From Desulfobacterales bacterium (lineage in GTDB: Bacteria > Desulfobacterota > Desulfobacteria > Desulfobacterales > SpSt-501): a stretch of 64,000 nucleotides of DNA. How positions within the stretch are numbered: position 1 is the stretch's first letter; each line of letters opens with the position of its first letter. This document shows positions 59,489-61,157 of the stretch, one piece after another. Location of the stretch: NCBI GenBank assembly GCA_046496215.1, contig JAWOHH010000040.1, positions 27,493-91,492 on the forward strand, read 5' to 3'. The notes under the pieces are model-generated. The model was not told the DNA's origin. It searched no databases and saw nothing but the letters and a program-made list of their open reading frames with translations. A program made the translations under genes and the position numbers.

Positions 59489-59503
59489 GCAAGCATCATG
59501 CCA
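59489..59503 (-). promoter_or_regulatory. Sigma-54 promoter candidate (TGGCAT-N5-TTGC) for the NifX-like/radical SAM/Mrp operon
   Basis: The minus strand reads TGGCATGATGCTTGCT. The -12 C is at 59489, which places the predicted +1 at about 59477-59479, on the first ATG. Confidence 0.5.
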
Positions 59504-59578
59504 AACCTCTTTTTGATTGAAACCCTTATTTCCTTGGCACTTAGACAGCGGGTCGGGTAAAATCCGGTTGACAGTTTA

Positions 59579-59593
59579 ATTGCATGATGCAAT
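59579..59593. promoter_or_regulatory. Palindrome ATTGC-N5-GCAAT (candidate enhancer-binding-protein site)
   Basis: ATTGCATGATGCAAT lies about 85 nt upstream of the minus-strand sigma-54 promoter. The same half-sites recur at 61019-61033. Confidence 0.4.
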
Positions 59594-59655
59594 GCTGGGC
59601 ACAGCAATTTTTGGCATTTCGCACGAATAAAGCTTTTTTTCTGCTTGGGGGCAAG

Positions 59656-61017
59656 ATGAGTGACGAACCGGTACTCAACCAACAGGATGTAATCCTCGAT
59701 TCGATCAACGAGGGCGTTTTTACAGTGGATCTCCAATGGCGTGTCACCGCCTTCAACCGTGCGGCCGAAAAGATCACCGGGGTCAAGCGCCAGGACGCCA
59801 TCGGCAAGGCCTGCTGCGATGTGTTTCACGCCAACATCTGTGAAAGAGACTGCGCCCTGAGGAGGACATTTGAAAACGGCAAACCGGTCGTGAACGCCAC
59901 CGCCCACATCATCACCCATCAGGGACGGCGCGTGCCCATCCGTATCTCCACCGCCATCCTGAAAGACGACAGCCGAAGGGTGATCGGCGGCGTGGAGACG
60001 TTTCAGGACCTCAGCCAGGTCGAGCAGCTCCAAAAACAGCTCCAGGGCCGCTTTACCTTCGAAGACATCGTCGGCCGCAGCCCGACGATGATGCGCCTGT
60101 TCGAATTGCTGCCGCAGATTTCCGCCAGCAGCAGCAGTGTCCTGATCGAAGGCCCGAGCGGGACCGGCAAGGAGTTGTTTGCACGCGCCATCCACAACCT
60201 CTCCCCGCGCCGGAAAAGGCCGTTTGTTGCTGTCAACTGCGCGGCGCTTCCGGACACGCTACTGGAGAGCGAACTCTTCGGCTACAAGGCCGGTGCCTTC
60301 ACCGACGCTCGGCGCGACAAGGCCGGCCGCTTCGCCCTGGCAGAAGGTGGGACGATATTTTTAGATGAGATCGGCGACATTTCCCCCGCGCTTCAGGTGC
60401 GCCTGCTCAGAGTCCTTCAGGAGCGGCTGGTGGAACCGCTGGGGTCGGTACGGCCGATCCCTGTGGATGTGCGCGTGGTGGCGGCCACCAACAGGGAGCT
60501 TGCCAAGCTCGTGCGTGATGGCAAATTCCGCGACGATCTTTACTACCGCATTCGCGTCATCCATCTTCGCCTGCCGGACCTGCGGCAGCGGCGCGAGGAC
60601 ATCCCGTTGCTGGTCAATCATCTGGTGGCGAAATTCAACCGTCTGCAGGGCAAGGACATCGCCGGGGTGTCCGTAGAAGCCATGGCCCGCCTCATGGACC
60701 ACGATTTCCCCGGAAACGTCCGGGAGCTGGAGAACATCGTCGAGCAGGCGTTCGTGCTCTGTCGGGGAAGCATCATCGAACTGCACCACTTGCCGCCCGA
60801 GCTGCGTCCGGCGGCCGCCGGGCCGACGGACGCCGTCGGCCCGATGAGCTTGCAAGCCATGGAAAAGCTTATGATCACGGAAATTCTGCGGCGCTACCAG
60901 GGCGACCGGCGGCGGGCCTCCCGGGATCTCGGGATCAACCCCAGCACCTTGTATCGGAAGATCAAGAGCCTGGGGATCGATGTGCCTGAAAGCGACGGCC
61001 GCCGCCGAAAAAAATAG
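59656..61017 (+). CDS. Sigma-54-dependent transcriptional activator (PAS - AAA+ - Fis-type HTH)
   Basis: PAS domain with CCDVFHANICERDC. AAA+ Walker A GPSGTGKE. GAFTDA loop (GAFTGA variant). C-terminal HTH RRASRDLGINPSTLYRKIK. Start set to ATG 59656. Confidence 0.9.
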   Translation: MSDEPVLNQQDVILDSINEGVFTVDLQWRVTAFNRAAEKITGVKRQDAIGKACCDVFHANICERDCALRRTFENGKPVVNATAHIITHQGRRVPIRISTAILKDDSRRVIGGVETFQDLSQVEQLQKQLQGRFTFEDIVGRSPTMMRLFELLPQISASSSSVLIEGPSGTGKELFARAIHNLSPRRKRPFVAVNCAALPDTLLESELFGYKAGAFTDARRDKAGRFALAEGGTIFLDEIGDISPALQVRLLRVLQERLVEPLGSVRPIPVDVRVVAATNRELAKLVRDGKFRDDLYYRIRVIHLRLPDLRQRREDIPLLVNHLVAKFNRLQGKDIAGVSVEAMARLMDHDFPGNVRELENIVEQAFVLCRGSIIELHHLPPELRPAAAGPTDAVGPMSLQAMEKLMITEILRRYQGDRRRASRDLGINPSTLYRKIKSLGIDVPESDGRRRKK

Positions 61018-61018
61018 T

Positions 61019-61033
61019 ATTGCGGCTTGCAAT
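61019..61033. promoter_or_regulatory. Palindrome ATTGC-N5-GCAAT (candidate enhancer-binding-protein site)
   Basis: ATTGCGGCTTGCAAT lies about 117 nt upstream of the 61142 promoter. An AT-rich stretch (possible bending site) lies between them. Confidence 0.4.
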
Positions 61034-61141
61034 GTTGTGCGGGTCTACCCGTTGCTCCCCCCACTGCACCTCCCTCCCCCCTTCAATGCAACAATCTAAG
61101 ATCGTTATGCATATTTTTTTAAATTGAACCCAACCCAGTCA

Positions 61142-61157
61142 TGGCATACGCCTTGCT
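61142..61157 (+). promoter_or_regulatory. Sigma-54 promoter candidate (TGGCAT-N5-TTGCT) for the PilZ-cooS operon
   Basis: TGGCATACGCCTTGCT. The predicted +1 is ~61168, about 38 nt upstream of the PilZ ATG, which has a GGGAGGGG SD. Confidence 0.6.

Follow-up and report, generated by a model that had tools for sequence, protein, structure and literature searches.

The window analysed here is a 64,000-nucleotide (nt) stretch of a Desulfobacterales metagenome-assembled genome (MAG; 3.93 Mb, 63% GC, 165 contigs, contamination estimated at 5%) and corresponds to positions 27493-91492 of contig C64. It includes an orpR-like gene, whose product belongs to the activators of sigma-54 RNA polymerase, located between two operons: a divergent one on the left that starts with a NifX-like gene, and a downstream one on the right that starts with a PilZ-like gene and cooS. 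Both sides of the activator gene display a sigma-54 promoter and one or more palindromic upstream activator sequences (UAS), an arrangement that most probably represents a regulatory module of the OrpR type. In what follows, G000 designates the window's own genome, C-numbers designate contigs and L-numbers homologous loci, with L102 being G000:C106. From left to right, the activator gene and its flanking elements are:

59503..59488, minus strand: left sigma-54 promoter TGGCATGATGCTTGCT, with the -12 C at 59489 and a predicted start at about 59477, facing the NifX-like operon

59534-59574, plus strand: candidate sigma-70-type orpR promoters from a consensus scan, TTGGCA-18-TAAAAT at 59534-59563 and TTGACA at 59568-59573

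59579-59593, unstranded: UAS1-left ATTGCATGATGCAAT, centre at 59586, 83 nt from the T of the left TGGCA

59613-59624, minus strand: UAS2-left GTGCGAAATGCC, centre at 59618, with 5 of 6 core bases, inside the orpR leader

59656-61017, plus strand: orpR-like gene, 453 amino acids (aa), with PAS, sigma-54 AAA+ and HTH_8 domains

61019-61033, unstranded: right UAS ATTGCGGCTTGCAAT, centre at 61026, 116 nt from the T of the right TGGCA

61094-61123, unstranded: AT-rich tract between the right UAS and the right promoter, with A or T at 24 of 30 bases, a possible bend or integration host factor (IHF) site

61142-61157, plus strand: right sigma-54 promoter TGGCATACGCCTTGCT, with a predicted start at about 61168, conserved in L001-L015

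An earlier reading of this DNA, made from the letters alone (the sequence-only reading), had described the activator as a PAS-AAA+-HTH protein. The Pfam domains agree with this description (Sigma54_activat, 1.6e-68; PAS_9, 1.3e-14; HTH_8, 2.6e-09; AAA_lid_14 as well), and a receiver domain is absent from the architecture. Orthologs of the activator are encoded by 14 more genomes of this genus (73-97% protein identity), and occur in two other families (about 68%). The PAS domain contains the arrangement C53-x8-C62-x3-C66 with an aspartate at position 55 (D55). These three cysteines are invariant in 13 aligned orthologs (57-90% identity), every one of which has D or E at position 55. As a variant of the sigma-54 contact loop GAFTGA, the window protein has GAFTDA, which orthologs of at least 68% identity share except for L017, and more distant homologs, together with a paralog on C162, carry a GAFTGA or GAFTNA loop. 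In OrpR of Desulfovibrio vulgaris Hildenborough (DvH), redox sensing involves a [4Fe-4S] cluster within the PAS domain, and needs C52, C61 and C65, residue 54 being a conserved Asp/Glu (PMC8359166), and the loop of this protein, DVU2106, is listed as GAFTDA (PMC4641369). The two proteins are alike as one-component PAS-AAA+-HTH activators of sigma-54 that share C-x8-C-x3-C, an acidic residue and GAFTDA. Membership in the OrpR family is claimed here, and not strict orthology to DVU2106, because the same genome encodes a 59% identical paralog with the same cysteine motif.

Both promoters fit the pattern TGGCAY-N5-TTGCW, are intergenic and point at a gene, so that the exact -24/-12 spacing claimed by the sequence-only reading holds for each. 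The right promoter was read on the plus strand precisely where it had been placed. The left one is also in its place on the minus strand, but the 16-mer ends at 59488, one base beyond the 59503-59489 originally given. A genome-wide scan for the pattern returns 30 occurrences against a simulated mean of 5.5, well above chance (the background for all motif counts being ten third-order Markov simulations of the genome). The genome encodes rpoN (sigma-54) and at least 11 sigma-54 activators. In 14 same-genus loci both promoters hold their position, with invariant TGGCA and TTGC blocks and variable bases in the N5 between them; the left promoter is kept as TGGCAY-N5-TTGCW in 13 of the 14 listed orthologs and in L016, and lies farther out in L009. 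Behind the right promoter, a leader of about 38 nt is predicted, with a Shine-Dalgarno (SD) sequence, GGGAGGGG, ahead of the ATG at 61206.

The two ATTGC-N5-GCAAT palindromes are likewise present at the positions proposed for them. Measured from the centre of the palindrome to the T of TGGCA, the left one is 83 nt from its promoter (about 85 nt had been estimated) and the right one 116 nt (about 117 nt). UAS1-left is a perfect 7-N1-7 palindrome. The right UAS begins one base past the TAG stop codon of the activator gene (61015-61017), as in most orthologs. A single site per side had been envisaged, and there is indeed a palindrome on each, but the left side carries two putative binding elements. 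The second, UAS2-left, is 32 nt from UAS1-left and 115 nt from the left TGGCA, and in most orthologs is kept as rTGC-N5-GCA at 113-116 nt.

These palindromes are rare in the genome. The background count suggested by the sequence-only reading gives three ATTGC-N5-GCAAT sites genome-wide, with a simulated mean of 0.6, and two of them are those that flank the activator gene, 1.4 kb apart. A 17-bp weight matrix, for which only the orthologous sites of other genomes served as training set, ranks UAS1-left first in the genome, at 24.0 bits, and the right UAS fifth, at 19.5 bits, a score that about 0.3 sites are expected to reach or exceed genome-wide. The third exact palindrome (C153:51769) was rejected as a target, as it lies in a degraded region and a sigma-54 promoter was not found nearby; the high-scoring matrix matches on C132, C129 and C83 were rejected for lack of a sigma-54 promoter in their vicinity. 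The bare core TGC-N5-GCA occurs in the window at chance frequency (24 observed, 22.9 expected), meaning that the signal sits in the extended half-sites and in their fixed positions, above all in position.

Across orthologs, the distance between the centre of the UAS and the T of TGGCA is 81-84 nt on the left and 115-118 nt on the right, with one case at 105 nt. The 200 nt upstream of each strict sigma-54 promoter were scanned for TGC-N5-GCA cores in 16 loci, and 44 of the 46 cores found are at 81-86 nt (21 cores) or at 113-118 nt (23 cores). The remaining two comprise the one at 105 nt, a helical turn shorter, and a stray one at 63 nt. The two classes are separated by 31-32 nt, which equals three helical turns. 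In L010 and L011, about 180 nt are inserted between the orpR stop codon and the right UAS, and the UAS keeps its spacing of 115-116 nt to the promoter; orpR and the left promoter of L009 are about 300 nt apart, and there too the palindrome remains with the promoter. Since the palindrome moves with the promoter across these insertions, it is a promoter-linked DNA element and not a feature of the 3' end of the gene.

The insertion of L010 and L011 has long inverted repeats at its ends (gataactt.gtaagaagcc ... ggcttcttac.aa.t.atc) and looks like a miniature transposable element.

Pairs of UAS and sigma-54 promoter with the proper geometry number only three in the whole genome, and all three belong to this neighbourhood. 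The two-promoter regulon of the sequence-only reading thus covered both flanking operons correctly, but fell one promoter short. The third pair is on C106, which probably continues C64, as C106:1-466 overlaps C64:93595-94059 with 93% identity over 466 nt; this suggests that the break between both contigs arose from strain heterogeneity in the MAG. The pair consists of:

L102 1662-1770, minus strand: promoter TGGCACAACGATTGCT, at 1677, and a TGC-N5-GCA site, 85 nt apart

It points at a gene for a GAF-domain protein (L102:121-720, minus strand), convergent on the right operon, and is kept at 84-86 nt in L103, L108, L109 and L110, four other genomes. The distance from the third promoter to the GAF gene is about 950 nt in the window's genome, compared to about 210-390 nt in relatives. 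A 28-codon open reading frame (ORF) located right after this promoter was discarded, as its ATG is not conserved in a twin genome of 97% identity.

A perfect sigma-54-like match, TGGCATCCTCCTTGCG, is also found at L102:705-720 (composite coordinate 16314, plus strand). It was rejected as a promoter, being the reverse complement of the SD and ATG of the GAF gene (AAGGAGGATGCCA). This chance match advises caution when sigma-54 promoters are called by pattern alone.

The paralog on C162 (G000:C162:3524-5600) is a second activator of the OrpR family, 59% identical to the window protein. It shares C-x8-C-x3-C but has another helix in its helix-turn-helix (HTH) domain, and its loop reads GAFTNA. Its gene is divergent from a NifX-like gene of its own, which has a sigma-54-like promoter, GGGCACGATTGTTGCT, and is part of a second orp-like module that this genome carries in parallel. 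Near this promoter, no TGC-N5-GCA was found. A paralog that has another HTH helix and lacks the motif implies that the motif tracks the local activator specifically.

The sequence-only reading had noted an AT-rich, IHF-like stretch before the right promoter. The AT tract is real, but the IHF consensus WATCARNNNNTTR is matched between UAS and promoter only with 2 mismatches, near background (about 5 such matches per kb). On the left side, 12 of 13 positions match the consensus by eye in L003 and L004. AT tracts like the right-hand one occur in L003 and L005-L011, and not in L013-L015. The window's genome contains five genes of the HU/IHF family.

The operons that face away from the activator gene comprise, within the window, four genes on the left and three on the right:

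59012-59473, minus strand: NifX-like gene 1, Nitro_FeMo-Co (Pfam) and MrpORP C-terminal domain (NCBIfam), starting with MKIAIPHWQGRVSPVFD

58477-59139, minus strand: NifX-like gene 2, Nitro_FeMo-Co (Pfam, 2.3e-22; synteny), the true start probably being later than 59139

57512-58480, minus strand: radical SAM gene (Pfam, 4.9e-13), syntenic in 7 of 8 long loci

56525-57466, minus strand: Mrp/NBP35 ATPase gene, resembling the P-loop domain of MrpORP (Orp9)

61206-61709, plus strand: PilZ-like gene (167 aa; motifs RRLPR and NFSQDG)

61743-63772, plus strand: cooS, catalytic subunit of anaerobic CO dehydrogenase (CO dehydrogenase family in Pfam; NCBIfam TIGR01702, 614.6 bits against a cutoff of 478), with the SD sequence GGAGGA

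63899-64000, plus strand: start of a Fer4 dicluster gene, from ORFs and Pfam matches of the continuing region (L021)

In full, the right operon consists of the genes for the PilZ-like protein, CooS, the Fer4 dicluster protein and a CCG-domain protein, a 128-aa ORF of no assigned family, and a third NifX-like gene. In nine syntenic loci, the Fer4 and CCG genes, which together are HdrD-like, are present in all nine and cooS in five, which makes cooS a variable member of the operon; neither cooC nor cooF was identified in the right operon. In the left operon, the Mrp ATPase aligns with positions 2-249 of the 365 in the NCBIfam profile for MrpORP (NF041136) and scores 385.6 bits, short of the cutoff of 450 because a separate gene encodes the NifX-like domain. 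The NifX-like proteins, for their part, match the C-terminal domain of this profile.

The layout as such is already known from the Desulfovibrio OrpR/orp system, and what is proposed here extends a known mechanism and does not change it. In DvH, orpR (DVU2106) is located between the divergent orp5-4-3 and the downstream orp7-8-9 operons, both of which are sigma-54 dependent. The OrpR sites are 17-bp imperfect palindromes (positions -88 and -131) separated from the promoters by IHF sites, and chromatin immunoprecipitation sequencing of OrpR returned those two regions as the only strong, dominant targets (PMC8359166, PMC3897727). The gene studied here likewise has one sigma-54 operon diverging from it and another downstream, with a palindromic site at each. 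In both systems the sites are of 17 bp, with 4-6 bases on either side of an N5 spacer, roughly 90-140 nt upstream of the starts; one promoter has two sites about 32 nt apart, and AT-rich or possibly IHF-bound DNA separates site and promoter. The targets are in both cases ORP-type Nitro_FeMo-Co proteins (three genes here) and Mrp/NBP35 ATPases, and the leader of the divergent operon is very short.

Several differences set this locus apart from DvH. The half-sites are TTGC/GCAA here and GGGCGC/GCGCCC in DvH (site GGGCGYRTTTTGCGCCC). The DvH recognition sequence is not matched here, and only the dyad-N5 geometry and a central GC..GC are shared, as would be expected of an HTH that has diverged, so that the module would work in the manner of OrpR with a separate operator. 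The side with the double site is the divergent one here, and the downstream orp1 side in DvH. MrpORP, a two-domain Fe-S carrier in DvH, is split into separate ATPase and NifX-like genes, and a radical SAM gene is added. PilZ, CooS and the split HdrD-like Fer4/CCG pair are found here, unlike the MinD-like Orp3/Orp4 of DvH. This genome also has the third target promoter before the GAF gene and the second OrpR-family paralog. Finally, the leader of the divergent transcript is predicted at 1-5 nt and lacks an SD sequence, and that of DvH orp2 has about 12 nt and an SD sequence.

Taken as a whole, the locus is best explained as an OrpR-type regulatory module in which the activator would serve both flanking operons, a reading to which a probability of roughly 0.85 is given. 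The proposal of the sequence-only reading that one enhancer-binding protein (EBP) drives both operons finds support in phylogenetic footprinting, the fixed geometry, the exclusivity of the site-promoter pairs and the OrpR precedent. By analogy with that precedent, C53, C62, C66 and D55 of the PAS domain most likely ligate a [4Fe-4S] cluster that responds to redox state. A dimer or higher oligomer of the activator would bind the 17-bp palindromes with their TTGC-N5-GCAA core, two on the left (83 and 115 nt upstream) and one on the right (116 nt), all on the same face of the helix. With the cluster reduced (anoxic conditions, low potential), the AAA+ ATPase would open closed complexes of sigma-54 RNA polymerase at the -24/-12 promoters, with looping probably aided by AT-rich or IHF-bent DNA. 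This would switch on the divergent orp-like operon and the downstream operon for the PilZ-like protein, CooS, Fer4, CCG, the ORF and NifX-like protein 3, and the third promoter of the same design would drive the GAF-domain gene.

The activator may also control its own synthesis. In DvH, orpR has a sigma-70 promoter. The candidate orpR promoters of the window are upstream of the left UAS sites or overlap them, and the TTGAC beside UAS1-left is conserved (as GTCAA) in L001-L012. As the left UAS sites cover the orpR leader and a candidate promoter, binding at these sites probably represses orpR as well.

Four points weigh against the OrpR-type module. The half-sites differ from those of GGGCGYRTTTTGCGCCC, and the specificity attributed to the activator derives from co-location alone. 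The genome encodes a second paralog of the OrpR family. The left promoter is unusually close to its ATG (11-14 nt), and a leader of 1-5 nt without SD sequence needs explaining. IHF matches are no better than background, and the spacers of the L013-L015 clade are GC-rich.

The first two of these points would fit a situation in which the TTGC-N5-GCAA palindromes are bound by another regulator, either another sigma-54 activator such as the C162 paralog or a protein that is not an EBP, the local gene being a mere neighbour. The binder is after all a prediction from sequence, the palindrome is not that of DvH OrpR, the paralog shares the cysteine motif and EBP genes are many in this genome. However, the motif with sigma-54 geometry is found only around the activator gene, and both co-occur in 14 orthologous loci. 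The paralog, moreover, has another recognition helix and a target of its own without the motif, and EBP genes of DvH typically lie beside their own targets (PMC8359166). Binding by another regulator is consequently unlikely, and the local activator remains the preferred candidate.

The third point bears on whether the left TGGCAT-N5-TTGCT is a promoter at all, or whether the NifX-like operon is transcribed from elsewhere and the motif was kept for another reason or by chance. The ATG is 11-14 nt past TTGCW in all orthologs, without SD sequence, most of the genome's other strict sigma-54 promoters are followed by leaders of 35-95 nt, and strict matches do arise by chance, as TGGCATCCTCCTTGCG at the start of the GAF gene illustrates. 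Against this, the -24 and -12 blocks are invariant in 14 genomes and the five bases between them vary, the UAS is at the canonical phased distance, and in DvH a leader of about 12 nt precedes orp2 behind an experimentally mapped sigma-54 promoter. That the left motif is not a promoter is thus very improbable.

Least credible is that the right palindrome acts in the RNA, near the 3' end of the orpR transcript, for instance as a weakly terminating or a stabilising hairpin, as its start one base past the stop codon in most orthologs might suggest: the stem has 5 bp, a T-run is absent, the motif recurs on the left side and at the third promoter, away from transcript ends, and both the terminator scan, which made no call, and the geometry of L010 and L011, where the palindrome is about 190 nt from the stop codon and still 115-116 nt from the promoter, reject it as the orpR terminator.

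If the left promoter is accepted, its transcript deserves attention. The -12 C is at 59489, the start near 59477 and the ATG of NifX-like gene 1 at 59473, so that a leader of 1-5 nt is predicted. The ATG is 14 nt past TTGCT in the window, and 11-14 nt past TTGCW in all 14 orthologs and in L016. No usable SD sequence precedes it, neither in the window nor in the orthologs. The N-terminus of the protein reads MK/RIA...WQGR[IV]SPVFD across orthologs. By comparison, the leaders behind most other strict sigma-54 promoters of the genome are of 35-95 nt. The sequence therefore predicts a conserved sigma-54 mRNA that is leaderless or nearly so. To our knowledge, conserved near-leaderless sigma-54 transcripts have been documented rarely, if ever, and the left promoter would offer a clean natural test case for the translation of sigma-54 mRNAs that almost lack a leader.

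Other known systems share part of this design. As in NtrC/NifA-type regulation, phased dyad sites are located about 80-140 nt upstream of -24/-12 elements, at integral helical turns, with bent DNA or IHF between them. The sensor here is a Cys-rich PAS domain, unlike the receiver or GAF domain of those activators, and their consensus sites, TGCACC-N5-GGTGCA and TGT-N10-ACA, differ from the sites found here. With the coo operons controlled by CooA or RcoM, the locus shares the position of cooS directly behind a dedicated regulator gene. By contrast, the regulator here is a redox-type sigma-54 EBP and not a haem CO sensor, and cooS is optional.

A broader proposal, held tentatively and at somewhat less than even odds, is that in this lineage the Fe-S redox switch of the OrpR type has gained a separate operator, TTGC-N5-GCAA, and coordinates three sigma-54 promoters, the divergent one with a near-leaderless transcript, and that it would have drawn cooS, the HdrD-like pair, PilZ and GAF genes into the ORP regulon. 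If true, the ORP metallocluster complex would be tied to CO dehydrogenase and redox metabolism. Roles in cell division and in the handling of Fe-S or Mo-Cu clusters have been proposed for the ORP complex (PMC8359166, PMC6345978). A well-conserved second OrpR regulon with other passengers (CooS, the HdrD-like pair, radical SAM, PilZ and GAF) provides guilt-by-association clues, and suggests that ORP proteins serve oxygen-sensitive metalloenzymes. The operator consensus and its strict helical phasing could also be used to annotate OrpR regulons across MAGs of the Desulfobacterota. A scan of named genomes with patterns from an EBP alignment, which are generic EBP motifs, returned 80 loci, mostly of unrelated EBPs, and recovered neither close relatives nor DvH.

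Beyond the left operon, the window encodes a 261-aa regulator of the MerR family (55391-56176, minus strand) and an FMN-reductase/SCP2 fusion (54187-55356, minus strand). Neither was detected at the matching place in the regions of relatives that were compared, and both are probably outside the conserved module.

The PilZ label is taken from the family, in which 4 of 6 orthologs match PF07238 (best E-value 2.9e-05). The copy in the window has no Pfam match, having diverged past Pfam detection, and a PDB profile search of the family found nothing. The PilZ-like gene is absent in L105 and L106, and in the 97% twin genome an internal deletion has reduced it to 54 codons (L110:2597-2758).

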